Assembly: GCA_964625085.1 (NCBI GenBank) | Contig: CAZVAJ010000001.1 | Location: 37,708 to 101,707, forward strand | DNA length: 64,000 bases | Direction: 5' to 3' | Origin: Candidatus Micrarchaeota archaeon | Lineage (GTDB): Archaea; B1Sed10-29; JAJSAI01 | Shown: in pieces, positions 2,949 to 57,388 of the stretch | Layout of the letters: every line of letters starts with the position of its first letter | How positions within the stretch are numbered: the stretch's first letter is position 1 | The notes under the pieces: generated by a model | Database searches by the model: none | What the model was told of the DNA's origin: nothing | Seen by the model: only the letters and a program-made list of their open reading frames with translations | Made by a program: the position numbers and the translations under genes

Positions 2949-2971
2949 GAAAAGTTAAGGAGGAAAACAGA

Positions 2972-3766: not shown

Positions 3767-4791
3767 ACAAAATGACCCAAACAGAACAAAGAAAAAATGA
3801 TCATATCGTCATGTGCCTGTCTAAAAAAGTAGAATCAGGAAGCACTTGGCTAGAGCACGTGAAACTCGTGCACTACAGTCTGCCTGAAATAGACTTTAAC
3901 AAAGTGAATCCAGGCACAGAGTTCCTCGGTAAAAAGTTTAAAATGCCAGTCATGATAACTGCAATAACCGGAGGAACAAAGCGTGCGCAGGAGATTAACA
4001 GAAAAATCGCGCGCGTTGCGCAAGAAAAAGGAATCGGAATGGGGGTAGGAAGCCAACGGATTATGATAGAAAAACCTGAAACCAGCGAAACCTTCCAGGT
4101 CAGGGACATAGCCCCAGACGTATTCCTGGCAGGAAACATAGGCGCTTATCAAATAAAACAGTACTCGGCTGAGCAGGTGCTAGAAGCAGCTGACAGAATA
4201 GAAGCTGATGCTCTGTGCGTCCACCTGAACGCTGCCCAAGAAGTATTCCAGCCAGAAGGGGATACTGATTTCTCAGGATGCTTGAACGCATTATCTGACC
4301 TGTGCAAAGCTGCAAAAATCCCAATAATAGCAAAAGAAGTGGGGAATGGAATAAACAAACAGGTGGCAGAAGAGCTCAAACAGGCAGGGGTAAGCGCGAT
4401 AGACACAGAGGGAGTAGGCGGAACGAGCTGGATCCTTGTTGATTCTCTCAGGGGAGGACCTGACCCAACAGAGTTCCTAGACTGGGGACTTCCAACAGCC
4501 ACATCTGTTCTTGAATGCTCAAGAACAGGACTGCCTGTAATCGCTTCAGGAGGCATACGCTCCGGCTTAGACATCGCCAAAGCAATATCCCTTGGAGCAA
4601 GCTTGACTGGATTCGCACTGCCAGCGCTGAAAGCAACAGAAAAAAATGAACTGAACAAACTACTAGACAAAATAGAGTTTGAGCTTAAAACAACCATGTT
4701 CCTAACCCGGTCCAGCGATCTCGAAAGTCTCAAAAAAGCAGACAAGGTTATCTCAGGACCGCTTAAAGAGTGGATAACACAAAGAAAATAA
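3763..4791 (+). CDS. fni: isopentenyl-diphosphate delta-isomerase, type 2 (FMN-dependent)
   Basis: N-terminal RKNDHI signature and TIM-barrel glycine-rich motifs typical of IDI-2. Confidence 0.85.
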   Translation: MNKMTQTEQRKNDHIVMCLSKKVESGSTWLEHVKLVHYSLPEIDFNKVNPGTEFLGKKFKMPVMITAITGGTKRAQEINRKIARVAQEKGIGMGVGSQRIMIEKPETSETFQVRDIAPDVFLAGNIGAYQIKQYSAEQVLEAADRIEADALCVHLNAAQEVFQPEGDTDFSGCLNALSDLCKAAKIPIIAKEVGNGINKQVAEELKQAGVSAIDTEGVGGTSWILVDSLRGGPDPTEFLDWGLPTATSVLECSRTGLPVIASGGIRSGLDIAKAISLGASLTGFALPALKATEKNELNKLLDKIEFELKTTMFLTRSSDLESLKKADKVISGPLKEWITQRK

Positions 4792-7007: not shown

Positions 7008-8747
7008 ATGGCTCTAAGAAGCCCTATAATATCAGTACTAGGACACGTGGACCACGGCAAAACAACCATCCTAGACAAGATCAGGGGTAGTGGTATTGCC
7101 GCAAAAGAAGCAGGGCTTATCACCCAGCATGTTGGAGCAAGCTTTGTGCCGCTTGAAGCCATAAAAAGAACTTCCGGCCCCTTGCTGGAAAAGTATGGTT
7201 TCAATCTCACGATACCGGGACTATTGTTCGTAGACACCCCTGGACACGAAGCGTTCACAACACTCAGGCAAAGAGGAGGAAGCGCTTCAGACCTCGCAGT
7301 CCTAGTCATAGACATAATGCAGGGAGTACAACCGCAGACAAAAGAATCCATAGAAATACTAAAAGCAAACAAAGTGCCATTCATCGTGGCCGCTAACAAA
7401 ATAGACCTGCTTAACGGCTGGATCCCGCATCCTGGAAAACCATTCTTGGAAACGCTGAAAGAACAGCCTGAACGCACGGTCCAGGAACTTGACACAAAAC
7501 TGTACGAGATCGTGGGACAGCTCGGAGAACTTGGGTTTAACTCAGAAAGGTTTGACAGGGTAGAAGACCTTACCAAAAACGTGCTTATAATCCCGGTATC
7601 CGGAAAAACAGGAGAAGGATTTCCTGAACTCCTGCTCTTCTTAGCAGGCCTCAGCCAAAAGTACATGATGCAGAAACTGAACATAGACACAGAAAAACCA
7701 GGGGTTGGAAGTATTCTGGAAGTCAAAGAAGCGACAGGCCTCGGAATGACCATAGACGTAATACTCCTGGAAGGAAAAATAAAACAATCTGACATGATCG
7801 CAGTGGCAAGCAAAACCGGGCCGAAAATAGTGAAGATAAAGGCCCTTCTACAACCCGCGCCGTTAGAAGAAATAAGAGACGCTAAAAGAAAGTTCAAAAC
7901 AGTAAAAGAAGTTCACGCTGCAGCAGGAGTCAAAATAGCAGCCCCCGGACTGGAAGACGTTATCCCAGGGTCCCCCTTGTTCGTAGTAGAGCCAGGGAAA
8001 GACAAAGAAGCAATGGAAAAAGTGGAAAAAGAAATGTCAAACGTGAACATAAAAACAGAACCTCTCGGGATCATAGTAAAAGCAGACACGCTGGGCTCGC
8101 TTGAAGCAATATGCAAGCTCATAAGCAGGCATGGGATAAAGGTTAGAAAAGCAGAAGTAGGCCCTGTGAACAAAGTTGACCTAACAGAAGCAGACAGCAT
8201 GAGAGGAGAAGACTGGGAATACCGAGCCATATTCTCGTTCAACCAACCTGTACCCTCCGCCATAAAAGAAGAAGCAAAAACAAGAGGGATACAAATATTC
8301 GAATCAAACGTGATATACCGGCTTGAAGAAGAATACCTCGAATGGCACGAGAAAAAGAAGAAAGAAAGAGAACTTGAAAGGCTCAAAAAGTATGTTTACC
8401 CTGCTAAGCTGAAAATACTCGAGGGGTATGTTTTCAGGAAAAGCAAACCCGCGGTCGTCGGTGTGGAAGTGCTTGAAGGAATGCTCAAATCAGACGTGCC
8501 AGTGATGCGATCTGATGGAAAAACAGTGGGGAGAATAAAAGGAATACAAGAAGAAGGAAAATCCAAAGAATTTGCTTCAAAAGGAGAAAAAGTTGCGGTG
8601 TCAATAGAAGACTGCACAGTAGGCAGGCAGGTAAACGAAGGGGATATACTCTATACTGCGGTGCCAAGAGAACAAGCTTACGAAATGATTGACAAAGTGC
8701 CCGAGAAAGGGCTTCTTAAAGAAATAATGCGTATAAAGGGTGACTAA
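7008..8747 (+). CDS. infB: translation initiation factor aIF5B (IF-2 homolog)
   Basis: GTPase motifs GHVDHGKTT, DTPGH and NKID. Product is about 580 aa. The upstream ATG at 6969 is probably not the true start. Confidence 0.85.
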   Translation: MALRSPIISVLGHVDHGKTTILDKIRGSGIAAKEAGLITQHVGASFVPLEAIKRTSGPLLEKYGFNLTIPGLLFVDTPGHEAFTTLRQRGGSASDLAVLVIDIMQGVQPQTKESIEILKANKVPFIVAANKIDLLNGWIPHPGKPFLETLKEQPERTVQELDTKLYEIVGQLGELGFNSERFDRVEDLTKNVLIIPVSGKTGEGFPELLLFLAGLSQKYMMQKLNIDTEKPGVGSILEVKEATGLGMTIDVILLEGKIKQSDMIAVASKTGPKIVKIKALLQPAPLEEIRDAKRKFKTVKEVHAAAGVKIAAPGLEDVIPGSPLFVVEPGKDKEAMEKVEKEMSNVNIKTEPLGIIVKADTLGSLEAICKLISRHGIKVRKAEVGPVNKVDLTEADSMRGEDWEYRAIFSFNQPVPSAIKEEAKTRGIQIFESNVIYRLEEEYLEWHEKKKKERELERLKKYVYPAKLKILEGYVFRKSKPAVVGVEVLEGMLKSDVPVMRSDGKTVGRIKGIQEEGKSKEFASKGEKVAVSIEDCTVGRQVNEGDILYTAVPREQAYEMIDKVPEKGLLKEIMRIKGD

Positions 8748-8748
8748 A

Positions 8749-9150
8749 ATGAAAGTAGTTATAGGAGACCCAAAAACAGGGAAAAGCTACCAAAAGGAGA
8801 TCGAACAAGGCAATCTCCTCTACGGCAAAAAAATAGGGGAACAAGTCGACGGAAGCATCCTGGAATTAACAGGCTACAAGCTGAGGATAACAGGCGGAAC
8901 CGACAAAGACGGTTTCCCGATGAGGCCGGACATCAATGGCACAGACAGGAGGCAGGTGCTGGCAGGAAAATCAATAGGTATAAAAAAGATACCTGAAAAA
9001 GGATACAAAAGAAGAAAAACAGTACGCGGGAACACAATAGCCGAGGACATTGCCCAGGTAAACCTGAAAATAATCAAGTTCGGGGAAAAGAACATAGAAG
9101 AAATTATGGGGAAGAAAGAAAATGCCGAAAAAGAAGGTAATTCAAGCTGA
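8749..9150 (+). CDS. rps6e: 30S ribosomal protein S6e
   Basis: MKVVIGDPKTGKSYQ..., RITGGTDKDGFPM and KRRKTVRGN match S6e. Confidence 0.85.
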   Translation: MKVVIGDPKTGKSYQKEIEQGNLLYGKKIGEQVDGSILELTGYKLRITGGTDKDGFPMRPDINGTDRRQVLAGKSIGIKKIPEKGYKRRKTVRGNTIAEDIAQVNLKIIKFGEKNIEEIMGKKENAEKEGNSS

Positions 9151-10312
9151 AGTGAACATTGGAACAGCCGGACACGTGGACCATGGCAAAACAACCATAG
9201 TCAAAGCCCTTACAGGACAATGGGTGGACAGGCACAGTGAAGAGATCAAAAGAGGCATCACCATCCGACTGGGATACGCTGACGCAGATTTCTACAAGTG
9301 CGGCGAACAATATACAGTAAACCCCGCGGACTGCAAAAAACCAGAATTCCTCAGAAAAGTTTCTTTTGTGGACTCGCCCGGACACGAAGCCCTGATGACC
9401 GTGATGATAAGTGGATCAAGTCTTGTGGACGGAGCGATACTGGTTATTGCAGCAAATGAACCATGCCCTCAGCCGCAAACACAAGAACACCTGGCCGCGC
9501 TGGAAATAAACGGAGTTAAGAACATAGTGATAGTCCAGAACAAAATAGACCTTGTAAGCCCGGAAAAAGCAAAAGAACACCACAATCAGATAATTGAATT
9601 CGTAAAGGGCACAAACGCAGAGGGTGCTCCTATAATCCCCATGGCCGCAAACCACTGCGTAAACCTGGACAAGCTCATAGAAGCCATTGAAGAGAAGATA
9701 CCAACACCAAAAAGGGACACGAAAAAACCGCTTAGGATGGTCGTAGCAAGATCATTTGATGTTAACAAACCAGGAGAAAAAATCAAGAATCTGAAAGGAG
9801 GAGTGCTCGGAGGCTCAATACTCCAAGGAAAAATAAGAGAGGGAGATGAAATAGAAATAGCCCCGGGCTTGGAAATCAAAGGAAAATACGAAACAATCAT
9901 CACAACAGCAAGATCTGTATCAGTAACTGATGGAGTAATAAAAGAAGCAGGCCCAGGAGGCCTTGTGGCAGTGCAGACCGGAATAGATCCTGCCCTAGCA
10001 AAAGGAGACCGCATGTCCGGAAACATAATCTCCAAACCCGGCGAAACTCCTCCTGTAAGAGACAGGATAGGGCTGGAACACACACTGCTTGAAAGAGCAG
10101 TATCCGGAAAACCAGAAAACTTAAAGCAAGGGGAAATGCTGGTGTTAAACGCCCTTACCATGACAACAATCGGTCAAGTGACTAAAGCAGGCCCGGAATA
10201 CTGCGAACTAACGCTAAGAAGACCTCTGTGCATCAGTGAAGGGGACAGAGTAACTATCTCAAGAAAGGTCAGAGGACGATGGAGCCTGATTGGGTACGGC
10301 ATAGTAAAGTGA
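9122..10312 (+). CDS. eif2g: translation initiation factor 2 subunit gamma (aIF2-gamma)
   Basis: GTPase motifs GHVDHGKTT, DSPGH and NKID, the zinc-knuckle Cys pair and a beta-barrel C-terminus. Confidence 0.9.
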   Translation: MPKKKVIQAEVNIGTAGHVDHGKTTIVKALTGQWVDRHSEEIKRGITIRLGYADADFYKCGEQYTVNPADCKKPEFLRKVSFVDSPGHEALMTVMISGSSLVDGAILVIAANEPCPQPQTQEHLAALEINGVKNIVIVQNKIDLVSPEKAKEHHNQIIEFVKGTNAEGAPIIPMAANHCVNLDKLIEAIEEKIPTPKRDTKKPLRMVVARSFDVNKPGEKIKNLKGGVLGGSILQGKIREGDEIEIAPGLEIKGKYETIITTARSVSVTDGVIKEAGPGGLVAVQTGIDPALAKGDRMSGNIISKPGETPPVRDRIGLEHTLLERAVSGKPENLKQGEMLVLNALTMTTIGQVTKAGPEYCELTLRRPLCISEGDRVTISRKVRGRWSLIGYGIVK

Positions 10313-12366: not shown

Positions 12367-12888
12367 ATGTGGTTTAGCTTTTCTGTTTATACCCTGTTAT
12401 TGCTACTCACGTACTACAGTGTCGGCTCAAAGAATTTTTTGAAAAAAGTAGGATTCAAGAAAATCCGCTTCGTGCAGGACTCTGCACACGCGTTATGCCT
12501 CGCGTTTGCCATGGTGCTCGTGAGCATAGCTATCTCTATTTCTTTTGTTTACATTGGCATGGGAGAAGATACTGCCAAAGTAACACAGACCATAATGTCA
12601 GCCCAGTTATGGCAGGTGCTCATCATCCTGATAATCGGGCCGATTATTGAAGAAATATTCTTCAGAGGATACCTGCAGAAAAAGACAAACCTGATCACGG
12701 CCTCTGCTGCATTCTCCTACTTTCACGTACTGTACGGATCAGTTTCTGAGCTTGCTGGAGCATTTATACTTGGATTAATGCTTGGAAAAGCGTTTGAAAA
12801 CACTAAGAACTTGTACATACCTGTACTATCCCACTACCTGTACAATTTCACTGTACTTGCAATAGCCCTTGCTGCACAGGCCTCATGA
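12367..12888 (+). CDS. CPBP-family intramembrane metalloprotease (CAAX protease / Abi)
   Basis: Polytopic membrane protein with the EExxFRG and FxxxH motifs of CPBP proteases. Confidence 0.65.
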   Translation: MWFSFSVYTLLLLLTYYSVGSKNFLKKVGFKKIRFVQDSAHALCLAFAMVLVSIAISISFVYIGMGEDTAKVTQTIMSAQLWQVLIILIIGPIIEEIFFRGYLQKKTNLITASAAFSYFHVLYGSVSELAGAFILGLMLGKAFENTKNLYIPVLSHYLYNFTVLAIALAAQAS

Positions 12889-13847
12889 TGATCTATCTTG
12901 GCATTGAGTCCACAGCACACACCTTCGGAATAGGGGTCGTGGACGGAGAAAGGATAATTGCCAACGAGAAGGACTCTTACAAACCAGAAAAGGGAGGAAT
13001 AGTCCCAGCAGAAGCGGCAGAGCACCACAGAAAGCATGCTCTGCCAATACTAGAGAGGGCCCTTGAAAAGGCAGGTATTACTGCTAGAGAAATCGATGTT
13101 GTAAGCTATGCTGCTGGACCAGGCCTTCCACCCTGTCTGATTGAAGGCAAAAAACTTGCAGAAAAAGTGGCGGAAAACAAGCCAGTGATAGGAGTAAACC
13201 ACTGCATTGCACACATAGAGATAGGGAAAAAAGACTCAGGATTCAAAGACCCCTTAACCTTGTACGTGTCCGGAGGAAACACTCAGGTCATAGCATTGAA
13301 TGAAGGAAGGTACAGGATATTCGGAGAAACACTGGACATAGGCATAGGCAACGCGTTGGACAAACTCGCTAGAGAGATGGGGCTCAAGATGCCGGGAGGC
13401 CCAAAGATTGAAAAACTGGCAGAAAAGAGCGAAAAGTATATACCCTTACCGTACACTGTCAAAGGAATGGACTTTGCTTTTTCAGGACTTCTCACCGCGG
13501 CCAAGAATAGCCTGAACAATTCCAGAAAGGAAGACATCGCCTTTTCTTTCCAGGAAACTGCTTTTGCAATGCTGGCTGAAGTCAGCGAACGCGCACTGGC
13601 CCATACTCAAAAAAAAGAGGTTATTCTAACAGGAGGAGTTGCGGCCAATAAAAGACTTGCTGAAATAATAAAAGGGATGGCAGAAGAGCATAACGCAGAA
13701 TTCACAGTACCCAGACAAGAATACTGCGGAGATAATGGGGCAATGATCGCATGGCTTGGCAAGATAGTGTATGAATCAAAAACAGAAGCAGCTACTGACG
13801 TAAAACCCAAGTGGAGAACAGACCAGGTTAAGGTTACTTGGGAATGA
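12885..13847 (+). CDS. kae1: tRNA N6-adenosine threonylcarbamoyltransferase Kae1 (stand-alone, not fused to Bud32)
   Basis: Kae1/TsaD signatures GIEsTAHTFGIGVV and HxxxH-type metal site. 320 aa. Confidence 0.85.
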   Translation: MMIYLGIESTAHTFGIGVVDGERIIANEKDSYKPEKGGIVPAEAAEHHRKHALPILERALEKAGITAREIDVVSYAAGPGLPPCLIEGKKLAEKVAENKPVIGVNHCIAHIEIGKKDSGFKDPLTLYVSGGNTQVIALNEGRYRIFGETLDIGIGNALDKLAREMGLKMPGGPKIEKLAEKSEKYIPLPYTVKGMDFAFSGLLTAAKNSLNNSRKEDIAFSFQETAFAMLAEVSERALAHTQKKEVILTGGVAANKRLAEIIKGMAEEHNAEFTVPRQEYCGDNGAMIAWLGKIVYESKTEAATDVKPKWRTDQVKVTWE

Positions 13848-14853
13848 TTTTTGTTGACTGTCCTCTAAATCCTTTGCCTGTTCGTTCTGTCTTGAGAAGG
13901 CCTTTTTCTTCAAGGGCTTTTATCTTCCGTTCAAAAGTCCTCTGACTTTTTTTGCCCCCTAAGGACAAGTACTTCTCGTAAACGCTTCCTGCAAGACCCC
14001 CTTCTTCTGGCACTGCTTTTAGTATGAGTTTCTCGTCCTCGTCCAATGCAGGCGTGCTCGGGCTCAGCAGTCTGGAAGCCGCGTTCTCAACATGCTTTTT
14101 CAGGACCTTAATACTAGCGTCTTTCTCTGCTTCAAGCCCTGCTTCCCTAAGCAGGATAATGCCTGTCCGGACATCCCTATCTTCATACGCTTTCTTGACC
14201 ACAAGCATGAAAGCATCTTCTGACCATGTGCCGTCATAGAACGCGTAGTCTCGTCTCAGTTTCAGAACATCCTGCATCTCCTCAAGAGAGTAAGGTTTAA
14301 ACAGTATTGTTTCGGGAATGATTCTTGACCTTATCCTCGGGTCTACCTGAACAAACCAATCAGGATCATTGGTTATCATCACAAGAACAAGGTTCTTTAC
14401 TTCCTCTGCAAGATAGTACAAGTAATCAGCATCCTGGGACTTGTCCACCTCATCAAGGGCAAGCACAAGGCCCCTGTCGCCAACAATCCTGGATATCTTG
14501 GAAAGCACCTCATCAGTGCCAAGATTGTGTGTGAACTGGTAGCCGAGCTGATGACAAGCTTCTGAAAGGATCTTAAAACTAGAGTTCTTCTTCCAACAGT
14601 TAACGAAAACAACCAGAACATCATGCTCTTCTTTAAGGTCAGCGAGCATTCTTTTCACTGTAGCAGTTTTTCCGATTCCTGCTTTTCCAGTAACAAGAGC
14701 ATGCCTCCCCCGGTAGCCTTCCAGCATTGGTTTTATGCAGGCTGCTATCGCCTCTTGCTGAGCTTCCCTGTGTGGAAGCATTTTGGGAACGAATTCAGGG
14801 TCAAGGGAGTCTATGAAAGAGAAGAGGGACTCCCCCTCCATCAGCAAACGCAT
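13834..14853 (-). CDS. orc1: Orc1/Cdc6 replication initiator, short 339-aa paralog
   Basis: AAA+ Walker A GKAGIGKT, Walker B LALDEVD and a C-terminal winged helix. 3' ends overlap kae1 by 14 nt in convergent orientation. Confidence 0.8.
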   Translation of the reverse strand: MRLLMEGESLFSFIDSLDPEFVPKMLPHREAQQEAIAACIKPMLEGYRGRHALVTGKAGIGKTATVKRMLADLKEEHDVLVVFVNCWKKNSSFKILSEACHQLGYQFTHNLGTDEVLSKISRIVGDRGLVLALDEVDKSQDADYLYYLAEEVKNLVLVMITNDPDWFVQVDPRIRSRIIPETILFKPYSLEEMQDVLKLRRDYAFYDGTWSEDAFMLVVKKAYEDRDVRTGIILLREAGLEAEKDASIKVLKKHVENAASRLLSPSTPALDEDEKLILKAVPEEGGLAGSVYEKYLSLGGKKSQRTFERKIKALEEKGLLKTERTGKGFRGQSTKIIPK

Positions 14854-14904
14854 ACAGTTTATTCCTCAAACAAAGTATTTATTAATGAACTTCCTTATGA
14901 GATC

Positions 14905-15105
14905 ATGACAAAAAAGAAAACCATAATAAAAAAACCCGGCTCTCCTGTGGTAAGCGAGCTTGCGTTGGAAGACAAGCTTCTCCTGAAGAGCACTCTAGAC
15001 ACGAACGAAGACGAAATAGAGGGCATGTTGGAAAAACTGGAAAACGACCTGACCACAAAAAAGCTGAATGAAGAATTGAAAGAAGCTAAAAAGAAACGCG
15101 GCTAG
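14905..15105 (+). CDS. hypothetical small acidic coiled-coil protein (67 aa)
   Basis: ATG-initiated internal portion of ORF 14623..15105. The upstream part of that ORF overlaps orc1 on the other strand. Codon-like composition; no recognisable domain. Confidence 0.3.
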   Translation: MTKKKTIIKKPGSPVVSELALEDKLLLKSTLDTNEDEIEGMLEKLENDLTTKKLNEELKEAKKKRG

Positions 15106-15544
15106 CTGCAGACCATAACACAAAAACAAGGAAAGCGCTTGCCATCCATAGTACAAAGTGTGCTGGAAACCAAGAAGGGCTGATCAAGGTCACGGCCACT
15201 CTGAAAAAGTTCGCTGCGAATAGCACAGGAATCCCGATAGCCATCAGGCTTATTCTTCTTTTTCTGTTAAGATAAGGGTCTGCTACTGCAAGTGCAGAAA
15301 GCAAGCTTATTGAGTCAATGCCAGTGCATGCTGGAATTATTACAGCCTCTGGAAATCCGTTAACGTAAACCACTGCACCCGAACTGCCTGCGTCCACCCC
15401 AAGCAATCCAAGTACTGATGCTGAACCTGACGCAGTAAGTTCCAGAAGCCCTGGAAGTGGAATTGAATGCAGGAGAATAAAAAGAACAACGAAAACTGAA
15501 AAAAAGACTGCTAGCATCTTACCATGGTACACTTTTAAGCCCAA
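15086..15544 (-). CDS. mini exosortase/archaeosortase-family protein (catalytic core only)
   Basis: Membrane protein with PACTGIDS (matches the exosortase/archaeosortase active-site Cys motif xACSGxxS) and ANFFRV (matches the NxxR motif). 152 aa. Confidence 0.45.
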   Translation of the reverse strand: MGLKVYHGKMLAVFFSVFVVLFILLHSIPLPGLLELTASGSASVLGLLGVDAGSSGAVVYVNGFPEAVIIPACTGIDSISLLSALAVADPYLNRKRRISLMAIGIPVLFAANFFRVAVTLISPSWFPAHFVLWMASAFLVFVLWSAASRVSF

Positions 15545-16040
15545 GTAACCACCCTATTAGATTAAGCGAAAGATGTGCTGCGATCGTCAGGAACGTGATG
15601 AACAAGATTTCTGCCAGCCCAGGCAGATAGAACGGAGACAAAAACAAAAGCGCTCCTATAACAAAATCAAGCTGGTCTGCCGGGAACCACATTTCCCCTC
15701 TTTTAAATCCTCTTCTCCTTTTCACAAAACTTTCAACAGCATCCCCTGCCAACGCACCGGTTGCCGCGAGAAATGCCAGGAATAACGGGTATCCTGAGAT
15801 AAACTGTTGTATCCCAAGCCCTGTCAAAACACCTAACAAAACGCCTACTAGAATACCTTCAAATGTTTTACCGTCTCCCAGCACTCTTTCGCCATCGCCA
15901 AGTTTTTTACCCCTGTCAAGAGGATGCCACTTCCACCTGAGAATACCTGAAAAGAATGCGGGAGAGAAGTTAGCAGAGTACGCTGGGAAGATTACCACAA
16001 GTATTATTATCAGGGGGTGTAAGCTCATAAGATCGAGCAT
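15519..16040 (-). CDS. carS: CDP-archaeol synthase (CarS, DUF46)
   Basis: 173-aa polytopic protein with the GDAVESFVKRRRGFKRG signature of CTP:DGGGP cytidylyltransferase. Confidence 0.7.
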   Translation of the reverse strand: MLDLMSLHPLIIILVVIFPAYSANFSPAFFSGILRWKWHPLDRGKKLGDGERVLGDGKTFEGILVGVLLGVLTGLGIQQFISGYPLFLAFLAATGALAGDAVESFVKRRRGFKRGEMWFPADQLDFVIGALLFLSPFYLPGLAEILFITFLTIAAHLSLNLIGWLLGLKSVPW

Positions 16041-16696
16041 AGCATCATCCCCACTACAGCTCCTGAGGTGGTTGCAACAAGGTTTGTTGAACTGTTTCCA
16101 ACAATCCCCCTGTTTTCAACAAGCGCGCCAAAAACGGAGTCTGCAAAGCATCCTGCAAGACCTGCTAACACAATAGGAACCATGCTCACCCCAAAAAACA
16201 TCCAACTCACTCCTGAAAAAACAATAGCAGCAACAGCACCCGAAATAGTTCCAAGCAGGCTTATTCCGCCATTAGTGCCTGGCGGAACCGTTTTAAGGCT
16301 GGTTATCATCACAGGCTCCTTCTTGGACAAAACACCGATTTCTGAAGAAATTGTGTCTGTCACTGCTGCTGAAAGCGCACCCAAAAACCCGTACAATCCT
16401 GCCGGGCCTCCGAGTAAAGCCATGAGGGCTGCAACTCCTCCATTGGCAATAACGTGCTTAGACTTTCTTCTTTTTTGATGTAACTTCTTCAGTGCTTTTA
16501 ACCTGTGCTTGTACTTGGTGGCTGACTCCCCTATTAAAAAGAATAGTAAGAGCATGTAAAACCATTCTATTCCCTGGCTTAGTACCAGAATGTATCCTAA
16601 CAGAACCCCTGAAACAACTCCCTCCGCGCTTAAGGAGCCTCCGGCCATGGCAAGCAGGCCTATGGCAAGAGGGAGTAGGATCGCGGACAATTCCAT
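16025..16696 (-). CDS. DUF92/TMEM19-like integral membrane protein (tentative)
   Basis: 223-aa multi-TM protein with a glycine-rich ANGGVAALMALLGG segment. Overlaps the carS start, so is probably co-transcribed. Confidence 0.4.
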   Translation of the reverse strand: MELSAILLPLAIGLLAMAGGSLSAEGVVSGVLLGYILVLSQGIEWFYMLLLFFLIGESATKYKHRLKALKKLHQKRRKSKHVIANGGVAALMALLGGPAGLYGFLGALSAAVTDTISSEIGVLSKKEPVMITSLKTVPPGTNGGISLLGTISGAVAAIVFSGVSWMFFGVSMVPIVLAGLAGCFADSVFGALVENRGIVGNSSTNLVATTSGAVVGMMLCSIL

Positions 16697-16706
16697 GATA
16701 AACTCC

Positions 16707-17333
16707 TTAAACTTCTACCTTGCTCACTATCGCCATCTTAACAGGGCAGAATACCTTTGCCTTTTTCTTCATTTCCGCGCCCAGTTCTCCGAAAGCTGCT
16801 TTCTTTACGAGGTCAGAGAGGGACACTCCCTTCGCGGTTTCCTCCAGCGTTTCTTCCATCACCTTGCGGATCACGTCTTTTCGCTCGGTGTTTATACGCC
16901 CTAGAGTAAAGAGGTGTGCAGTAACTTGGGCCTTCTTCTTGTCCTTTGTCTTGACATAGTGTATTGCAGTCACCATGCTGCGACCTCTGCGGACATTCCT
17001 TCTAAAGTGTTCTCTGACCATCTCGAACCCGTTGGTTTCTGTGTAAGCGGTGGTGCCTTTTACCTCGTTTACTTTGAAGTGCATTGTTATTGACTGGTGA
17101 GAAATGTTTCCAGTTATCTCCCTAAGAGGTACTTTTATAACACGCCCAATAACAAGCTCTGGCTTTATTGCAGGGGTGTTCCCTACTTCCTTTGACTCAA
17201 AGTCTTTTGGGGAAACAACGGTATACCATGACTTCTTTTTCCAGGTATCAGTAGTCTTTCTCTTCTTTTTCTTTGAAGTTTTCTTAACCGCTGTTTTCTT
17301 AACCTTCTTCTTGCTATCTGCCATGATCATCAC
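16707..17333 (-). CDS. rps3ae: 30S ribosomal protein S3Ae (eS1)
   Basis: Lys-rich N-terminus, WYTVVSPKDF and a GRVIKVPLRE-type sequence. Confidence 0.85.
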   Translation of the reverse strand: MMIMADSKKKVKKTAVKKTSKKKKRKTTDTWKKKSWYTVVSPKDFESKEVGNTPAIKPELVIGRVIKVPLREITGNISHQSITMHFKVNEVKGTTAYTETNGFEMVREHFRRNVRRGRSMVTAIHYVKTKDKKKAQVTAHLFTLGRINTERKDVIRKVMEETLEETAKGVSLSDLVKKAAFGELGAEMKKKAKVFCPVKMAIVSKVEV

Positions 17334-17791
17334 CTTTCCTTAACAATAAGCGCGGCCTTCTCAGGCGTGTACCTCCATCCCTCCGGAAGTACCCCTGTAC
17401 CCCGGTAGTACTTAACGAGCCTTTTTATTTTAGACTCTGTGAGGGTTAATGCGCGCGTGTTATGAATATCCTTCTTATGGACAGTGAGGTGCTTTCTAAG
17501 CCGTACTGCCCTTCTCATTAGGTTCATTAGGTCTTCAGGATACTCTGGCAGGAGCTTGTTCTCGGCAAGAACTTCTTTCACTGATTTCCCGAGAACTGCT
17601 TTTACGCTTGGAACACCGTACTGATCTCTCAGCACTATTCCTATTTCGCTCTGTGTCTTGTCCTGCCGGGCAAGATCGCATATCTTTTTTTCAACATCCT
17701 TTTTAGAGAGCTCTACCCATTTTGGGCTTATTCTAACAGGAGGGTGAACAGATCCACTGCGCCCCTTTTTCCTAGCATGCATCCTAGACAT
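17330..17791 (-). CDS. rps15: 30S ribosomal protein S15 (uS15/S13e)
   Basis: MSRMHARKKGRSGS N-terminus and a C-terminal S15 helical domain. ATGA overlap with rps3ae. Confidence 0.85.
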   Translation of the reverse strand: MSRMHARKKGRSGSVHPPVRISPKWVELSKKDVEKKICDLARQDKTQSEIGIVLRDQYGVPSVKAVLGKSVKEVLAENKLLPEYPEDLMNLMRRAVRLRKHLTVHKKDIHNTRALTLTESKIKRLVKYYRGTGVLPEGWRYTPEKAALIVKER

Positions 17792-19646: not shown

Positions 19647-20360
19647 TCAGAAAGGAGGAATGACCATCATACCATTGCCTGTGATATCAACAGGGAAAGG
19701 TTGCTTGGGAACGTCTGTTGCCACCATCTTTTCAAAATACAGCTGAGTTATCCTTTGTCCTTTTTCTTCTGCTCTTGATAATCTAAGCACTCCGTCAAAT
19801 ACAAAGTCTTCTTCTTCAAAAAAGGAAATCCCATCAGGCCTTGTTTCTGAAATAAAGAGGGTAGTGCAGCCTTTTTCTTTAAGTGATTTTGATAAGGAGT
19901 GTAGCATGTTTCGATACTCTCCTTTTTCGTTGAAGTAGAATCCCAAAGGGGTCACTGAATCAAACGCGATCCTCTTCACGTTCATCTCGTCTATTATCTT
20001 GTACAACTGGAGCACCACTTCTGAATGAAGGTTACGGGCCTCAAACTTGGAAAAGTCCTGAGAAGAGAAAACAGTGAAAATAAGCCTGTTCTGTGCAGAT
20101 ATTGTTGAAAAATCCCAGTTGAATGCCGCTTGGTACCATTCTATGTCACTTGGGTAACCGTGAACCTGCACAAGAAGACCGTTTTCATCATATTCTTCAA
20201 CACCCTTGTACAAATACTGTAGTGCAGCGATCGTTTTCCCAGTACCGCTAGGGCCTTTTAGGAGGATTGAACTGCCTTTTATTATTCCTCCTTCAGTTAT
20301 CTCATCAAACCCAGGTATCCCACTCTTGATCCGATCCAATTTACACAAGCCTCCTGACAA
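19647..20360 (-). CDS. KaiC/RecA-superfamily ATPase (single-domain; RadB/FlaH-like)
   Basis: Walker A GPSGTGKT in a KaiC-like context (GIPGFDEI...GG). 237 aa. Confidence 0.7.
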   Translation of the reverse strand: MSGGLCKLDRIKSGIPGFDEITEGGIIKGSSILLKGPSGTGKTIAALQYLYKGVEEYDENGLLVQVHGYPSDIEWYQAAFNWDFSTISAQNRLIFTVFSSQDFSKFEARNLHSEVVLQLYKIIDEMNVKRIAFDSVTPLGFYFNEKGEYRNMLHSLSKSLKEKGCTTLFISETRPDGISFFEEEDFVFDGVLRLSRAEEKGQRITQLYFEKMVATDVPKQPFPVDITGNGMMVIPPF

Positions 20361-21879
20361 ACTCCGCGTATGCAGGTCTTGCTATGAACACTCCAATAAG
20401 TGACCCGAGTATGGTGGTTAGTGCAAAACCTTTTAACACGCCAAGACCAAGCGTGAACAGCGGGAACATTGCGATTATCGTGGTGAAAGCAGCCATCATT
20501 ATGATGTTCACCGCTTTCTTTATCCTAGAAGCGATTCCTGCTCTCTTTTCTTTTGACGCACCTTTGACTGCTTCGTCTGTTATGATTATCAGGTGGTCCA
20601 CTCCTGTTCCTACTGCTGCTATAATACCGGCCACTGCTGGAAGGTCAAGCTGCCAGCCTATCCAAGCAGCCATTCCAAGAATCATCACAGCCTCTGAAAC
20701 GCTTATCATGAGCATTGGCCCCACTATTTTTGGTTTCTTGTACCTGAAGAATATCACCATGCCCACGGCAAGTATTGCAGCCAGTCCTGCAACTCCTGAG
20801 TAGTACAGGAATTCCTTGCCAAGAGATGCTGAAACTGAGGAAACACCTGAAACCTGCACTGACACAGGAAGCTTTCCTGAATCAAGGATTATTCTCGTCC
20901 GGTCTCTTTCTGCAATTGCCTCCTCTTCATTTGAGGCCCCACCGGTTATCCTGAGATCGTACTGAACTTCTCCTGAGGTTACTGCACTTGTTAGGCGCAC
21001 AATACTCTGCAGGTTTATAGCCCCCGGAATAAAGTAGTTACCTGTTTGCGGTTTTACCTGCACTTCAGATGCGCTTGAGTTGAGAAGTGAGATGTATTCT
21101 TCTAGAGGACTTCCTTCTTTGAGGATGACCGTCTTGTTCTTAACCTGATCTAAGACCTGCTGGTCCACCGTGCCAGTGACTATAAGACCAATATCAGAAT
21201 CCTGCAAGAGCTCTTCAAGAGGAATCTTGCTGTTTGAAGGCGATTCCTGATTAAATTGTTCAGGGATCTCTTTTTCAGCTTCATACTCTGTGGGGGTTAG
21301 TAGGATTACCGCGTTCTGCGGTCTGTCAATGAACATGTATGTTCTTTCCATGCACTGGGAACCGCTAGGATCGGAGGGGTCTAAGGTGCACTTGCCTGCA
21401 ACCATGTTCGCGAACTGTTTGGCTGCTGAAGTGCTCATGGTGAACGGAACGCTCCACATATATCCTGTGCCTGCTCTGCTGACTGTGTATCCCCTAGTAG
21501 GATCAGACACGACACCAATAATTCCATCAGAACCTAGCAGGACCTTGCCCTCAAACATTGCCTCGAACCTGCCCTGTTCCCCGATTATTTTTTGTATAGC
21601 TGCCACTACTTTCGGGTCTGTTTCAGCCACCTCAACCATGATAAAGTCCGGGCCTCCTGGCCGTACTTTCATGTCCTTTAGCCCGAAACTGTTAAGCCTG
21701 TCCTGTAGAACTCTTACAAGAACCTCTTTTTCAGGACCCTCGACTGGTTCGGAGAGTTGTATGTTTATTATTGTTCCACCTGTAAAGTCCATTCCAAACT
21801 GAAGGGGCTTTATCGCGAATGGCAGAAGCCCTATGACTATAAAAGATATCACGTACAACTTTGTTCTGATGTTTTTCAC
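20341..21879 (-). CDS. secD: protein-export membrane protein SecD
   Basis: 512 aa with an N-terminal TM, a large periplasmic-type domain and six C-terminal TM helices. Follows secF as in archaeal secFD operons. Confidence 0.8.
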   Translation of the reverse strand: MKNIRTKLYVISFIVIGLLPFAIKPLQFGMDFTGGTIINIQLSEPVEGPEKEVLVRVLQDRLNSFGLKDMKVRPGGPDFIMVEVAETDPKVVAAIQKIIGEQGRFEAMFEGKVLLGSDGIIGVVSDPTRGYTVSRAGTGYMWSVPFTMSTSAAKQFANMVAGKCTLDPSDPSGSQCMERTYMFIDRPQNAVILLTPTEYEAEKEIPEQFNQESPSNSKIPLEELLQDSDIGLIVTGTVDQQVLDQVKNKTVILKEGSPLEEYISLLNSSASEVQVKPQTGNYFIPGAINLQSIVRLTSAVTSGEVQYDLRITGGASNEEEAIAERDRTRIILDSGKLPVSVQVSGVSSVSASLGKEFLYYSGVAGLAAILAVGMVIFFRYKKPKIVGPMLMISVSEAVMILGMAAWIGWQLDLPAVAGIIAAVGTGVDHLIIITDEAVKGASKEKRAGIASRIKKAVNIIMMAAFTTIIAMFPLFTLGLGVLKGFALTTILGSLIGVFIARPAYAEFVRRLV

Positions 21880-22892
21880 TTCTTACGCCTCCTTGATATC
21901 CAAAGTAGTATTGATGCATTAGTGCACCAGGTTGAAACAAGATCTCCTAGAAGTCCGACGAACAGGATCATTGCAATCATTGCAAGAGTTTCAACACCCC
22001 CAAAAGACGCGGCAGCATAAAGGGCCACCAAAGCAGCGAGTGTTGTTCCAGTCATCGTGAACCCGGTTCTCATCGCAGACTTTATTCTGTTTTCAGGAGA
22101 ACCTTCTTTTCTTGAAAGCACGCGCTCACTCAACATGATGTCCGTGTCAACAGAGTACCCTATAAGCATTAACAAGGGCGCAACAGCAGCCAGACTGAGT
22201 GGTATTTTCATCATGCCGATAAAGCCCAGGCCAACGATCACGTCAAAAACTGCTGCCTGGATAACCGCAAATGACACCAACACTTTCCTGAAAAACACGA
22301 ACACTAAAATGCTCATGAGGATGAACGAGAATATTAGGGCGTTCTGCATCTGAGACAGAAAAACAGCCCCCAAAGACGGTCCAACTTCACGAGAGGAAAT
22401 GTCCTTTGAAGAAACATGATACGTTTCGGTGATGAAAGAAGAAAGCGAGGACTTGAACTCAGTTTTTTTCTCGTTATATACCTTAAACGCAAGTTCTGAT
22501 AGGTTGCCTTCTGCAGGAACAGGCTCGCCCAGCGTGGAAAAAACTGCCTGATAGTCTCCTGACTTATACGCTTCTTCTGCGGCCACAAGGGTTCTCTCGC
22601 CCTTAAATTCTATTATGATTCCTGAAATAGCTCCTGAAGAAGACCTGGCTTTCAGCTCTTCAAGATCAAACCTACTGGAGAGGTCTTCTTTTACCTGCAC
22701 AGGACTAACGTTGGTGGGAAAAGAAATTACAGTTCCTCCTGTAAATTCTATTCCTGGCTCTATCTGGGTAGCAAAAAACAGGAAAATGACAGCAATAATC
22801 ACCGGAGGTATAAACAACATTTTGTAATTCTTCTCAGAGTACATGCTCAAGAACAATCCCCTCTTTTTCCAGCATAGTGTATAAAACAACAC
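21876..22892 (-). CDS. secF: protein-export membrane protein SecF
   Basis: 338 aa with SecDF-type TM topology. ATGA overlap with secD. Confidence 0.8.
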   Translation of the reverse strand: MLFYTLCWKKRGLFLSMYSEKNYKMLFIPPVIIAVIFLFFATQIEPGIEFTGGTVISFPTNVSPVQVKEDLSSRFDLEELKARSSSGAISGIIIEFKGERTLVAAEEAYKSGDYQAVFSTLGEPVPAEGNLSELAFKVYNEKKTEFKSSLSSFITETYHVSSKDISSREVGPSLGAVFLSQMQNALIFSFILMSILVFVFFRKVLVSFAVIQAAVFDVIVGLGFIGMMKIPLSLAAVAPLLMLIGYSVDTDIMLSERVLSRKEGSPENRIKSAMRTGFTMTGTTLAALVALYAAASFGGVETLAMIAMILFVGLLGDLVSTWCTNASILLWISRRRKK

Positions 22893-48679: not shown

Positions 48680-48831
48680 GCAGAAGAGAAAGTGTAGCAG
48701 TATACCTGGGCGGAGAAAAGAGCGTGGGAAAAACACTTCCGGACAAGTACGAAGCGTTCTTTGAATCATGGGAACTTGCAGCCGTACTTGCTTCCCTTGC
48801 CCTACTATCATTACTGGTGATGGTAATATGA
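48676..48831 (+). CDS. putative small hydrogenase-associated membrane protein (51 aa, unannotated)
   Basis: GTG start overlaps the upstream stop; ATGA overlap with the downstream small subunit. One C-terminal TM (AAVLASLALLSLLVMVI). Confidence 0.3.
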   Translation: MSRRESVAVYLGGEKSVGKTLPDKYEAFFESWELAAVLASLALLSLLVMVI

Positions 48832-54713: not shown

Positions 54714-54932
54714 TCAAGACACCTGATCCTGCTGTTGCTGATCATGTCTATCACAAGATAAAACTTCACTAACAAGCCCCCACGGAATTGTGTCTCTCAC
54801 CTTCATCTTAAGTTCTTTTATGCTCTTGCACGTGATTTCTTTCCTGTTTAACGTGATCCTGTACTCCCCGCTGGCGTTCTCGTGCTCTATTATCAGCCGG
54901 CAGTCTCCTTGGAATATTATTAAGGTATTCAT
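54714..54932 (-). CDS. hypothetical small protein (72 aa) between the large surface protein and the pilin
   Basis: ATGA-coupled to the upstream 819-aa ORF. No recognisable motif. Confidence 0.3.
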   Translation of the reverse strand: MNTLIIFQGDCRLIIEHENASGEYRITLNRKEITCKSIKELKMKVRDTIPWGLVSEVLSCDRHDQQQQDQVS

Positions 54933-57388
54933 AGTGTTCTCCTTACAAGCTTTTTCTTGTTCTGTTTCTTCAGCATGAAAAACGAGAACGCTGCAAAGCC
55001 CAATGGAACCGCGTAGTAGGAGTAGTTATTGGATTCTGTTTTTTCCTGAGAAGTTTTATCCTCTTCTTTTTCAGAGCCCTCAGAGAGCTTTAGGGCAGAC
55101 TCTTCTGCTTGCTGTTCTTCAATTACTGGTTCTTCTATTATTGGTTTTACTTCAGGCCGGGTGATAGGAGCTGGTGTGTCAGGAGCGGGCTTAAGAAGAG
55201 ACTGCACGGCAAAATCAGTGTACTCAGGCTGGCTGGTAAACGAATACTCTGGTTTATCGGCAGGTGGCTGGTCCCCGTTGATTATTGTGGGCGTGTATTC
55301 TGTTGTGGTGGTTTCAGCAGGAGCTGAAAGAACCGCTGCCAGTGTTTTGACCTCTCCCTGATTCAAAGAAGATATTAGGAACAGGATTCTGCCATCGTGT
55401 TGTATGCATGAATTGCATGACTCAACATCTGCTTCTACTGGATACGATAACAAGATGTTCTTCAGACTGGCTCCTGGGTTGATTACCCTTATCCTGAACA
55501 CCTGATCTGTTCTTGAAGACTGTGAAATAAGCCAGCATGGCTTGGTGTACAAAACCGTTGCCTTGCTAACAGCAGTTTCTCCTTCAGGAAGTATCACGGG
55601 CAGAGGAGACGTTATCTGGTACTCTTTCTCGTAGTACACTTTTTCGTTGTCTGCCTTTACTTGCTCGTTCCTGATCACCTTGCATTCTGGGCGCGCGAGT
55701 AGGCTGATGTTAACCGCTTTCTCTGCACTTGAGAAATGTTTTTCCTGAGAGTTGTCAGGAAAGAACAGACCTGGAGGAAGCTTGATGTTTGCTTGGTACG
55801 CTGTGGTTTTTGGGCCTGTGAACATGATTGTTGCGTTGATGTATGTTTCGGCACTGCAGGGGAGGGGATTTGTCGGAAGCAGCAGTGAATACCCTGAACT
55901 GATAGTGGCCAGCTGTTTATCCAGGTCCAGCAGGATGTCCTGGTATTCTTTGATGATGTTTCCTATATTATCATCAAGGTCGGACTGGTCTGCTTTCAAA
56001 AGCCGGTAGTGTATTCTGTCAAGGAACTCTTCGCTTGCACCTGCTGTTTTAAGTGTGTAGTACTTTTCCCATGCCTTGGCTGAAAGTTGTCTTGCTATCT
56101 CCTTGTATTCTTCCAGTTTTTCTTGCATCCCTCTCAAGCGGTTTTTGAGTATTCCCCTGGAGTCAGGGCTTGAGTCATCAGGCCAATCTGGCTTGCATTC
56201 GATGCCCACAGACCTGAGGGAAGCGCATAGTTTCTCAGCAAGCTTTTTCTCCTGGTCTGGTGTGGAGTGTGTTTTTTCTGAAAAGGTTATGCATTTTTTC
56301 AGCAGGTTTATTCGCTCTCCCAGCTTTCTGCTCGTACTTGAGCAAACCTGTTTTGCAAGTGGGTATAATGCGCTTTCCGGGTTTGCTTGAGAAAACTTTT
56401 GCCTGGCTTGCGCGCGCAGGACCGGCTCTGTTTCAACCGCTTGCTGCAGCGCGCCCTCCAAAGAAAGCAGGATGCTGGAAGCATTAGTGTTGTAACCATG
56501 CAGAAGGATTATTGCCTTTGCTTTCCTCCCGTTCGCGTACATCACTGAGAATTTTTTCATTCTTCCGTCATGCGCTGCTAACCAGGATGTTGCAATGTAG
56601 TATGCTTGTTTAACGCTCATGTTTCCTGATGATGATATCTCACGCTGTTCTAAGGGCAGCGAGTCCCACACCACCATGTCAAGGGCATTACTCTCGTACT
56701 CTTTTACCCTGTAACTGAGTCTTGTGCTGAGTTCTTCTGAAGTCTGCTTTTCTTGCTTGTACTCTGCTTCTATTTCTTGCAAGGCATGGAGAAACCTTTT
56801 ATGCTGCGAGAACATCAGTGTGAACAAAGAATCAGGGTATCCTACAAGAGTATTGTACACGTTGCCTCCTGCCGAAGCGAGGTTAAGGTCCTTCCTAACT
56901 TTTTCAGCGTTTTCTCCGAGCATCATCTTGTTGGAGCCTGCTTCTTTCACTGCTTTTACTGTTTCCTTTAGATCAAGGTAAACTGGTTTGGCCTTGCCCG
57001 AATACTCTTGGTCTGCTACCCCCATTTCTTCAAGCACTTCAGCATCTTTTTCGATCAACACGGCCATGCCGCTGAACGCCTGGGAAGCATCATAATACAC
57101 TTGTTCTAACTTTGCTTTGCAGTAGCTTGACAAGAACAGGCTGCTTTCAGCTTCTTTCAGGTACAAGGCCAGCATGTCCCTGGTCTCGTTCTTCGCGTTT
57201 TCTGCATCATACCATGCTTTTGACAGGCTTTGCAGGTAGTACTCTTTTCCAGGAGCGTCGTACGCCTGCAGGCTTGCGGGAATGTTGGGCGGTGTGTTGA
57301 GTTCTGTTATTCTTGACTGATAGTCTGAAACTGAAAGAAGGCCATTCAACGCCAAGCCGATTAGTATGGCCTGTATTACAGGAGCCAT
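54929..57388 (-). CDS. large secreted surface protein (819 aa) with Thr/Pro/Glu-rich linker and C-terminal PGF-CTERM-like sorting signal
   Basis: Sec signal peptide and a helical ectodomain. The C-terminus is a TTTEYTPT...PAPDTPAPITRPEVKP linker followed by VPLGFAAFSFFMLKKQNKKKLVRRTL (motif, TM, basic cluster). Confidence 0.6.
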   Translation of the reverse strand: MAPVIQAILIGLALNGLLSVSDYQSRITELNTPPNIPASLQAYDAPGKEYYLQSLSKAWYDAENAKNETRDMLALYLKEAESSLFLSSYCKAKLEQVYYDASQAFSGMAVLIEKDAEVLEEMGVADQEYSGKAKPVYLDLKETVKAVKEAGSNKMMLGENAEKVRKDLNLASAGGNVYNTLVGYPDSLFTLMFSQHKRFLHALQEIEAEYKQEKQTSEELSTRLSYRVKEYESNALDMVVWDSLPLEQREISSSGNMSVKQAYYIATSWLAAHDGRMKKFSVMYANGRKAKAIILLHGYNTNASSILLSLEGALQQAVETEPVLRAQARQKFSQANPESALYPLAKQVCSSTSRKLGERINLLKKCITFSEKTHSTPDQEKKLAEKLCASLRSVGIECKPDWPDDSSPDSRGILKNRLRGMQEKLEEYKEIARQLSAKAWEKYYTLKTAGASEEFLDRIHYRLLKADQSDLDDNIGNIIKEYQDILLDLDKQLATISSGYSLLLPTNPLPCSAETYINATIMFTGPKTTAYQANIKLPPGLFFPDNSQEKHFSSAEKAVNISLLARPECKVIRNEQVKADNEKVYYEKEYQITSPLPVILPEGETAVSKATVLYTKPCWLISQSSRTDQVFRIRVINPGASLKNILLSYPVEADVESCNSCIQHDGRILFLISSLNQGEVKTLAAVLSAPAETTTTEYTPTIINGDQPPADKPEYSFTSQPEYTDFAVQSLLKPAPDTPAPITRPEVKPIIEEPVIEEQQAEESALKLSEGSEKEEDKTSQEKTESNNYSYYAVPLGFAAFSFFMLKKQNKKKLVRRTL

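Follow-up and report, generated by a model that had tools for sequence, protein, structure and literature searches.

The 64,000-nt stretch of contig CAZVAJ010000001.1 analyzed here (hereafter the window) carries a gene for a small exosortase/archaeosortase-family protein of 152 aa directly downstream of the gene for CDP-archaeol synthase (CarS), and the two constitute a conserved and probably translationally coupled carS–sortase cassette that occurs in divergent archaea. Based on family models, multiple alignments, a structure model and gene-order surveys, a possible function was proposed for this protein. It may be an active minimal archaeosortase-type cysteine transpeptidase of an unnamed, CarS-tied subfamily, which would anchor proteins by means of a lipid derived from CDP-archaeol; by analogy with the characterized ArtA system, this function is considered, on balance, probable.

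The product of the small gene belongs to the exosortase/archaeosortase superfamily according to its matches above the cut-offs of both generic family models, TIGR04178 and PF09721 (Table 1). The protein contains the motifs PACTGIDS (with Cys73) and ANFFRV (with Asn112 and Arg115), followed by His129. These four residues are invariant in an alignment of 35 sequences comprising the window protein and 34 small relatives, and they are equally invariant in the comparison with six full-length exosortase-type relatives of 263–332 aa, of which the window protein covers the C-terminal half without their first 110–170 residues. The first-pass annotation of this DNA had assigned the gene to this superfamily by its motifs, and the assignment stands because the family models match and the conserved Cys and Arg sit at the expected active-site positions in the alignments. 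When 1.84 billion representative proteins were searched exhaustively without a profile, 115 relatives emerged at E < 1e-3; their median length is 172 aa, and nearly all are 140–190 aa long. A word-indexed protein search returned the identical JGI protein alone, to which a profile added little. In species-representative genomes, a scan with the single protein found no relative, and a scan with a five-sequence alignment recovered one locus alone (L001). The gene is real, since a syntenic contig of a metagenome-assembled genome holds an ortholog with 48–50% identity and 115 relatives exist.

The same annotation had described the protein as a "mini" archaeosortase of half the usual length. This description holds only in relation to the exosortases with eight transmembrane (TM) segments and to ArtA; several named classes are equally small. 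The NCBIfam profiles of the small classes ArtB, ArtD, ArtE, ArtF, pacearchaeosortase, XrtH, XrtX and XrtY span 150–168 positions, and the window protein aligns over nearly the entire length of these profiles. Its scores lie below the respective cut-offs for ArtB (TIGR04144, 38.8 against 150 bits), ArtD (TIGR04175, 14.1 against 125), ArtE (TIGR04124, 25.9 against 95), ArtF (TIGR04293, 21.9 against 150), pacearchaeosortase (NF033505, 23 against 80), heimdallarchaeosortase (NF045528, 34.3 against 130), XrtH (26.1 against 86), XrtX (32.6 against 170) and XrtY (22.5 against 160). The ArtA model (TIGR04125) gave 37.9 bits against a cut-off of 75, with only profile positions 105–212 of 271 matched. 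The 11 other CarS-linked relatives, all of which were tested, did not reach any named-class cut-off either. Because all of these cut-offs are missed, the CarS-linked sortases are, as far as profile scores define it, an unnamed subfamily, for which the current curated models hold no class.

An AlphaFold2 model based on the 35-sequence alignment (mean pLDDT 94.7, pTM 0.87) comprises helices at residues 2–27, 31–47, 76–88, 94–121 and 125–148 and a small β-sheet at residues 52–68, a predicted layout of four membrane spans with one outward-facing helix and the β-sheet. According to this model, the sortase is a complete compact fold and no fragment. Across the alignment, Lys and Arg together average 3.2 in the N-terminus, 2.8 in the loop at residues 89–98 and 3.2 in the C-terminal tail, and the regions 28–72 and 122–128 are acidic or neutral. 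Under the positive-inside rule, both termini are predicted to be cytoplasmic, with Cys73, Arg115 and His129 near the outer leaflet, which is the placing expected for the exosortase/archaeosortase family. Structure searches found no solved structure related to the sortase by sequence or by fold. The possibility that the 152-aa open reading frame (ORF) is the truncated remnant of an eight-TM gene was rejected because relatives of the same length exist, the predicted fold is confident and complete, and CarS fills the upstream space.

The product of the gene upstream of the sortase scores above the cut-off of the NCBIfam equivalog NF003114 and matches the CDP-archaeol synthase of Aeropyrum pernix (PDB 5GUF) over residues 12–173 with E = 1.6e-23. 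By homology, it is a CDP-archaeol synthase with the corresponding predicted activity. The GD..SF.KRR and DQ motifs are conserved in the alignment of the sortase-linked CarS proteins. The gene context was surveyed from the side of the sortase in the window and in nine distinct relatives for which the context was readable (loci L001–L011, 28–50% identical to the window protein). In 10/10 of these contexts, CarS is located directly upstream of the sortase, with junctions of -32 to +10 nt, and the arrangement was confirmed with tblastn. Locus L001 ("archaeon isolate Dive96_bin4.413"), whose sortase is ~48% identical, is fully syntenic with the window, with the gene order Bud32, S15, S3Ae, DUF92, CarS, sortase, Orc1/Cdc6 and Kae1. 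The eight further relatives (P0003, P0004, P0006, P0007, P0009, P0010, P0011 and P0018) are 28–40% identical and all CarS-paired. Downstream, the pair is followed by Orc1, a methyltransferase, a cupin, a KH-domain protein or an acetyltransferase; upstream, it is preceded by DUF92 in some loci and by a divergent NfeD/MJ0538 pair in others, and SecDF also flanks it. KaiC-like ATPase, GCD14-type methyltransferase and NOG1 GTPase genes recur near the pair in some loci.

From the side of CarS, JGI metagenomes were scanned with a CarS alignment, which yielded 80 loci with 36–50% identity to the window CarS, of which 63 were evaluable, with ≥450 nt of downstream sequence. A sortase-family ORF was found in three of these 63 loci (L028, L029 and L087), each time directly downstream of CarS, its start codon overlapping the CarS stop codon in the sequence GTGA. 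The relationship is thus asymmetric: the sortases of this group adjoin CarS in all cases examined, but most CarS genes stand without a sortase. The physical link between the two genes, which had been noticed in the window alone, is thus retained in every readable relative. When the small relatives were clustered, the CarS-linked proteins fell into five clusters. P0017, which belongs to another cluster, is encoded between GlmS and Ig-like surface proteins without CarS, and its cluster mates are labeled exosortase H or archaeosortase B, in an ANME-1 archaeon; P0040, of a further cluster, likewise has no CarS gene beside it.

The relatives that carry taxon names belong to Candidatus Norongarragalinales and Micrarchaeota (class Micrarchaeia) and to Candidatus Diapherotrites (phylum Iainarchaeota). 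Micrarchaeia and Iainarchaeota are DPANN archaea (kingdom Nanobdellati), and the pairing thus occurs in at least two DPANN phyla. Open-access texts on archaeosortases together with CDP-archaeol synthase, DPANN or DUF46 do not mention the pairing; the original archaeosortase paper of 2012 lay outside this search. The sortase superfamily itself and the small archaeosortases are already known. What appears to be new is an unnamed sortase subfamily defined by obligatory carS adjacency in DPANN lineages and, with it, a second case, independent of the first, in which the genome links an archaeosortase to the CDP-archaeol pathway.

In the window, the DUF92, CarS and sortase ORFs are all located on the minus strand with overlapping ends, by 16 nt between DUF92 and CarS and by 26 nt between CarS and the sortase when counted from a TTG start. 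An alternative in-frame ATG of the sortase is present at 15517, 1 nt past the TAA stop of CarS. The TTG start is preferred on sequence comparison because the homologs, too, have a short basic N-terminus ahead of TM1. The three-gene operon proposed in the first-pass annotation was confirmed as to its co-oriented, overlapping genes, but the array in fact reaches further upstream to the genes of ribosomal proteins S15 and S3Ae. Since the S15/S3Ae junction is -4 nt (an overlap) and the S3Ae/DUF92 junction is +10 nt, the five genes probably form one transcription unit with S15 as its first gene. T-rich runs follow the stop codon of the sortase. A 66-aa Lys/Glu-rich ORF (MTKKKTIIKKPGSP...) at 14905–15105 (+) faces the sortase gene in convergent orientation, with an overlap of 20 nt at the end of the latter. 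An ortholog with 64% identity occupies the same position in L001 (6452–6643, minus strand), and no Pfam match was found for it. The ORF thus appears to be a real small gene in what seems to be the intergenic region between the sortase and Orc1.

The DUF92 protein exceeds the cut-off of PF01940 but not that of TIGR00297 (Table 1), and therefore it is a member of the family rather than of the narrow equivalog. The order S15–S3Ae–DUF92 is kept in L001, L003/4 and L010. The order DUF92–CarS–sortase of the window is also found in L001, L003/4, L008 and L028/29. On the other hand, DUF92 does not flank the pair in L006/7, L009 and L011, and in L010 it is located ~1.3 kb from CarS–sortase on the opposite strand. 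Furthermore, DUF92 adjoins CarS without a sortase in L013, L033, L048 and L062. DUF92 belongs with the S15–S3Ae cluster and is not a core partner of the sortase, so that its inclusion in a conserved module with CarS and the sortase, as initially suggested, was not borne out. The family (arCOG02245/COG1836) has been described as a remote member of the cytidylyltransferase/dolichol-kinase superfamily with a predicted kinase step in isoprenoid metabolism (Makarova and colleagues, PMC5898192), and its plant member VTE6 is a phytyl-phosphate kinase (PMC9782597). The DUF92 protein is thus a plausible pathway neighbor of CarS, as a predicted isoprenoid-phosphate kinase.

Table 1. Coordinates of the five-gene array, the 819-aa protein and the SecD/SecF genes, with the supporting matches (window positions unless a locus is named).
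Feature	Coordinates	Strand	Evidence
Ribosomal protein S15 (S13/S15 type)	17330..17791	-	PF08069 and PF00312 matches
Ribosomal protein S3Ae	16707..17333	-	PF01015 E = 2.5e-52
DUF92 / COG1836 / arCOG02245 membrane protein, 223 aa	16025..16696	-	PF01940 172.5 bits (cut-off 27.5); TIGR00297 167.1 bits (cut-off 205.85)
CDP-archaeol synthase CarS (by homology), 173 aa	15519..16040	-	NF003114 162.1 bits (cut-off 148); PF01864 E = 3.9e-34
Small exosortase/archaeosortase-family protein, 152 aa	15086..15544	-	TIGR04178 40.4 bits (cut-off 23); PF09721 45.2 bits (cut-off 25.7)
819-aa protein (substrate candidate of the first-pass annotation)	54929..57388	-	sequence features only
SecD/SecF, window	20341..22892	-	
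SecD/SecF, L001	217..1218		
SecD/SecF, L003	7702..10147		
SecD/SecF, L008	1418..4106		
SecD/SecF, L009	963..3732		

In the proposed mechanism, the active site of the sortase would be located at the outer face of the membrane, where the C-terminal membrane-anchor signal of Sec-exported surface proteins would be cleaved via a thioacyl intermediate at Cys73. This intermediate could then be resolved onto a polar archaeol lipid made from CDP-archaeol, the product of CarS, and the surface protein would be left lipid-anchored. The coupling between CarS and the sortase would run via co-expression, via co-localization or via a complex that includes head-group attachment and lipid flipping. In the window, the carS–sortase cassette has become joined to the S15–S3Ae–DUF92 cluster to give the five-gene array. 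A precedent is provided by ArtA: Haft and colleagues noted that artA adjoins pssA in Methanosarcina, where pssD is located in that region as well. In Haloferax, ArtA substrates are neither cleaved nor lipidated once the PssA or PssD homolog has been deleted, and the proposed nucleophile of that system is archaetidylethanolamine, into which PssA and PssD convert CDP-archaeol (PMC7157517). In addition, five of the loci with enough flanking sequence (the window, L001, L003, L008 and L009) have SecD/SecF genes at a distance of up to ~5 kb from the pair; their recurrence fits a role in protein export but may equally be inherited synteny.

The 819-aa protein had been put forward as the substrate of the sortase on account of a PGF-CTERM-like tail. 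Hydrophobic residues form one segment at its N-terminus and a short stretch near its C-terminus (YYAVPLGFAAFSFFML); the protein also contains an acidic linker rich in Pro and Glu and ends in a Lys/Arg tail (KKQNKKKLVRRTL). No other protein of the window shows a lone C-terminal hydrophobic segment together with a basic tail. Archaeal surface proteins commonly end in a membrane anchor followed by basic residues. PLGF is located midway in the 16-residue hydrophobic stretch, with only eight hydrophobic residues behind it, whereas in the PGF-CTERM model a full-length TM helix and an Arg/Lys cluster come after the PGF motif. Neither the full protein nor its isolated tail matched any NCBIfam sorting domain, PGF-CTERM included, even at E ≤ 10, and a word-indexed protein search returned no homolog other than the protein itself. 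Moreover, the sortase is not an ArtA by its score (37.9 against 75 bits), and therefore a PGF signal is not expected. The 819-aa protein is thus not supported as a substrate. A 122-aa ORF directly downstream of its gene (54285–54653, minus strand), without a Pfam match at E ≤ 1e-4, begins with MKGLSPIIAMVLFIAITVIAG, which, judged by eye, is similar to the class III (type IV pilin-like) signal peptides of archaea; in that case, the gene of the 819-aa protein may be part of a locus for a pilus or another surface structure. Among the neighbors of the pair, 125–130-aa proteins (L006 and L009) and a 174-aa tail-anchored protein (L003) were considered as substrates and rejected, with no motif in common. 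The 125-aa protein of L009 (5598–5975, plus strand), which is encoded just downstream of the sortase on the Norongarragalinales contig, starts with the lipobox-like MKSKILLVLLLAALFAGC and is a candidate AliA-type archaeal lipoprotein (PMC12462473) rather than a sortase substrate.

Several points weigh against protein anchoring by the CarS-linked sortase. Its chief weakness is that substrate families were searched only in the 64-kb window and in 1–12 kb around each of 95 related loci (~375 kb in total); within this sequence, no substrate family was found, but only one orphan candidate and no shared C-terminal motif. Only three relatives carry taxon names. The linked loci are found in a few clades of a crude neighbor-joining CarS tree, interspersed with unlinked ones, the genes of S15, S3Ae, SecDF, the KaiC-like ATPase and NOG1 are themselves syntenic among some loci, and CarS is a single-copy housekeeping gene. 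Therefore, the ten contexts are not fully independent. The direct coupling of lipid activation to lipidation that the first-pass annotation had in mind is also unlikely on topological grounds: CarS reportedly works at the cytoplasmic side, according to the paper on the 5GUF structure, but the predicted site of the sortase is at the outer face, so that CDP-archaeol could not be passed on directly, and a lipid with a head group would have to be flipped across the membrane. A scan of ~47 window ORFs, an incomplete share of the total, revealed no PssA, PssD or other CDP-alcohol transferase, and the Pfam calls of the neighbors in L002–L011 contain none either (the neighbors in L001 and L012–L091 were examined for CarS, the sortase and DUF92 alone). 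We know of no experimental evidence of any small archaeosortase acting on lipid.

The pairing could instead reflect operon inertia, with an ordinary protein-sorting archaeosortase whose chemistry is unrelated to that of CarS, both genes being constitutive membrane-biogenesis genes in a housekeeping block. The ribosomal protein genes at the start of the array are consistent with this explanation, as are the few clades of linked CarS genes in the crude tree and the SecDF, KaiC-like ATPase and NOG1 genes, which recur nearby in several loci and indicate block inheritance for some of the region. However, the pair is kept where all of its surroundings have changed (L006/7, L009, L010 and L011 compared with the window, L001 and L003), every junction is overlapping or ≤10 nt, and the adjacency does not weaken even where the identity of the sortases drops to 28–37%. 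Inertia also leaves aside that the other small sortases, P0017 and P0040, are not CarS-linked and that, in a tested precedent, an archaeosortase is tied to the steps that follow CarS in this lipid pathway (PMC7157517). Inertia is considered unlikely.

A different function is conceivable as well, in which the Cys/His/Arg site acts on lipid, by exchange or remodeling of archaeol head groups in the outer leaflet, or in which the protein is an obligate stabilizer or regulator of CarS, without any protein sorting. In favor of this function, the sortase is strictly and in many cases translationally coupled to CarS, none of the loci examined showed a cognate sorting signal or a substrate next to the pair, and the subfamily matches no class with a defined sorting signal. 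The missing substrates, however, carry no weight when the scan covered ~375 kb rather than whole genomes. Every characterized or predicted member of the family processes protein C-termini, and the catalytic constellation is unchanged here; moreover, the site of the sortase is predicted on the membrane face opposite the active site of CarS, and no CarS–sortase fusion protein was found among the 115 relatives. Such a lipid-directed role, which is judged distinctly improbable, would turn the pair into a compact unit of two genes with which DPANN archaea build or re-tailor their membrane lipids. The least probable account, to which little credence is given, is the complete model of the first-pass annotation, namely a DUF92–CarS–sortase module for lipid activation and lipidation with the 819-aa protein as its PGF-CTERM-like substrate. 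The overlap of the three genes in the window and L001, the recurrence of their order in L003/4, L008 and L028/29, and the linker, hydrophobic stretch and basic tail of the 819-aa protein speak for it; the loci in which DUF92 is off the flank of the pair, apart on the opposite strand or next to CarS without a sortase, the orphan status of the 819-aa protein without any sorting-domain match and the failure of the sortase in the ArtA model speak against it.

Other genes near the pair and elsewhere in the window were also inspected. In L011, which is Micrarchaeia-like and has a CarS-linked sortase, a second sortase paralog of 190 aa is encoded at 7986–8558 (-), with 32.3 bits for TIGR04178. It contains the Cys, the Asn-x-x-Arg and the His, is not located beside CarS and follows a 230-aa multi-pass membrane protein (8593–9285, minus strand). 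An Rce1-like intramembrane protease of the CPBP/type II CAAX prenyl endopeptidase family is encoded in the window at 12367–12888 (+), at ~2.2 kb from the sortase; Kae1, Orc1 and the 66-aa ORF separate the two. It is another membrane enzyme of the C-terminus-processing kind in this neighborhood. An ORF of similar size occupies the corresponding position in L001 (8688–9203, minus strand), with its family judged by eye. Two Orc1/Cdc6 paralogs are present within the 64 kb, at 13834–14853 (-) and 36358–37569 (+); the former is located directly downstream of the array and lacks the C-terminal winged-helix match of the latter. No origin-type repeats were seen in 14600–15300.

Consecutive genes of the GHMP kinase, amino-acid-kinase and FMN-dependent dehydrogenase families (assigned at the Pfam level) at 1941–4791 (+) are in the usual archaeal order of mevalonate kinase, isopentenyl phosphate kinase and type 2 IPP isomerase; judging from these family matches, the organism probably makes its own isoprenoids and is not wholly host-dependent for its lipids. 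A cluster at 47813–51848 (+) contains matches to an Mrp/NuoL-type antiporter subunit and to the 20-kDa and 49-kDa subunits of complex I, of which the 49-kDa-type protein also matches the model of the NiFe-hydrogenase large subunit, together with a NuoH-like seven-TM protein recognized by eye; at 51829–52275, a HycI-like maturation protease is weakly matched. The cluster has the appearance of a group 4 membrane-bound [NiFe] hydrogenase, a notable feature should the organism be a DPANN archaeon. Over window positions 1–64000, ARAGORN found no tRNA gene, and no Rfam family reached its gathering threshold.

The CarS-linked sortase can be compared with several known systems of C-terminal protein processing. 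The rhombosortase/GlyGly-CTERM system is a non-homologous, bacterial analog based on a rhomboid-type serine protease. Its processing attaches a moiety containing glycerophosphoethanolamine and is cited as a chemical precedent for the resolution of an acyl-enzyme by a lipid amine (PMC7157517). Bacterial exosortases (EpsH/XrtA, with PEP-CTERM signals) possess Cys, Asn-x-x-Arg and His in the same order and spacing as the window protein. In contrast, they are 263–332 aa long, with an extra N-terminal half of ~110–170 residues that the window protein lacks, and they are tied to exopolysaccharide loci and not to CarS. Among archaeal enzymes, the small classes ArtB (with VPXXXP-CTERM signals), ArtD, ArtE, ArtF and pacearchaeosortase are of the same size (150–167 positions) and share the same core, but the window protein and its 11 CarS-linked relatives score only 14–39 bits in these classes, far under the cut-offs of 80–150 bits. 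For the one ArtB/XrtH-labeled relative with a known gene context, the neighbors are GlmS and Ig-like surface proteins and not CarS. Of these small classes, ArtE is needed for natural transformation in Methanococcus maripaludis (PMC10133366).

The closest parallel is ArtA with PssA/PssD in Haloferax volcanii and Methanosarcina, which shares with the window protein the superfamily and the Cys/Arg-type catalytic motifs. To our knowledge, experiments have demonstrated lipid anchoring by an archaeosortase for ArtA alone, in a single haloarchaeon. ArtA is ~270–300 aa long with roughly double the membrane spans and recognizes PGF-CTERM, whereas the window sortase has 152 aa. Both systems place a sortase gene beside a gene of the CDP-archaeol branch, artA–pssA–pssD in Methanosarcina and carS–sortase here, and the proposed outcome, C-terminal cleavage and lipid anchoring of surface proteins, would be the same (PMC7157517). 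The linked lipid gene of the present pair is CarS, which makes CDP-archaeol and is therefore one step upstream of PssA and PssD, which consume it. The link of ArtA to lipid synthesis was likewise first suggested by gene-neighborhood evidence. If lipid anchoring by the CarS-linked sortase is correct, the pairing would point to a route for surface-protein attachment in Micrarchaeia, Iainarchaeota and related small-celled archaea, in the form of a compact two-gene unit of ~330 codons that can be expressed and tested. Furthermore, a second, independent sortase subfamily directly behind the gene for an activated lipid precursor would suggest that dependence on archaeol lipids is general to the family and not a peculiarity of ArtA.

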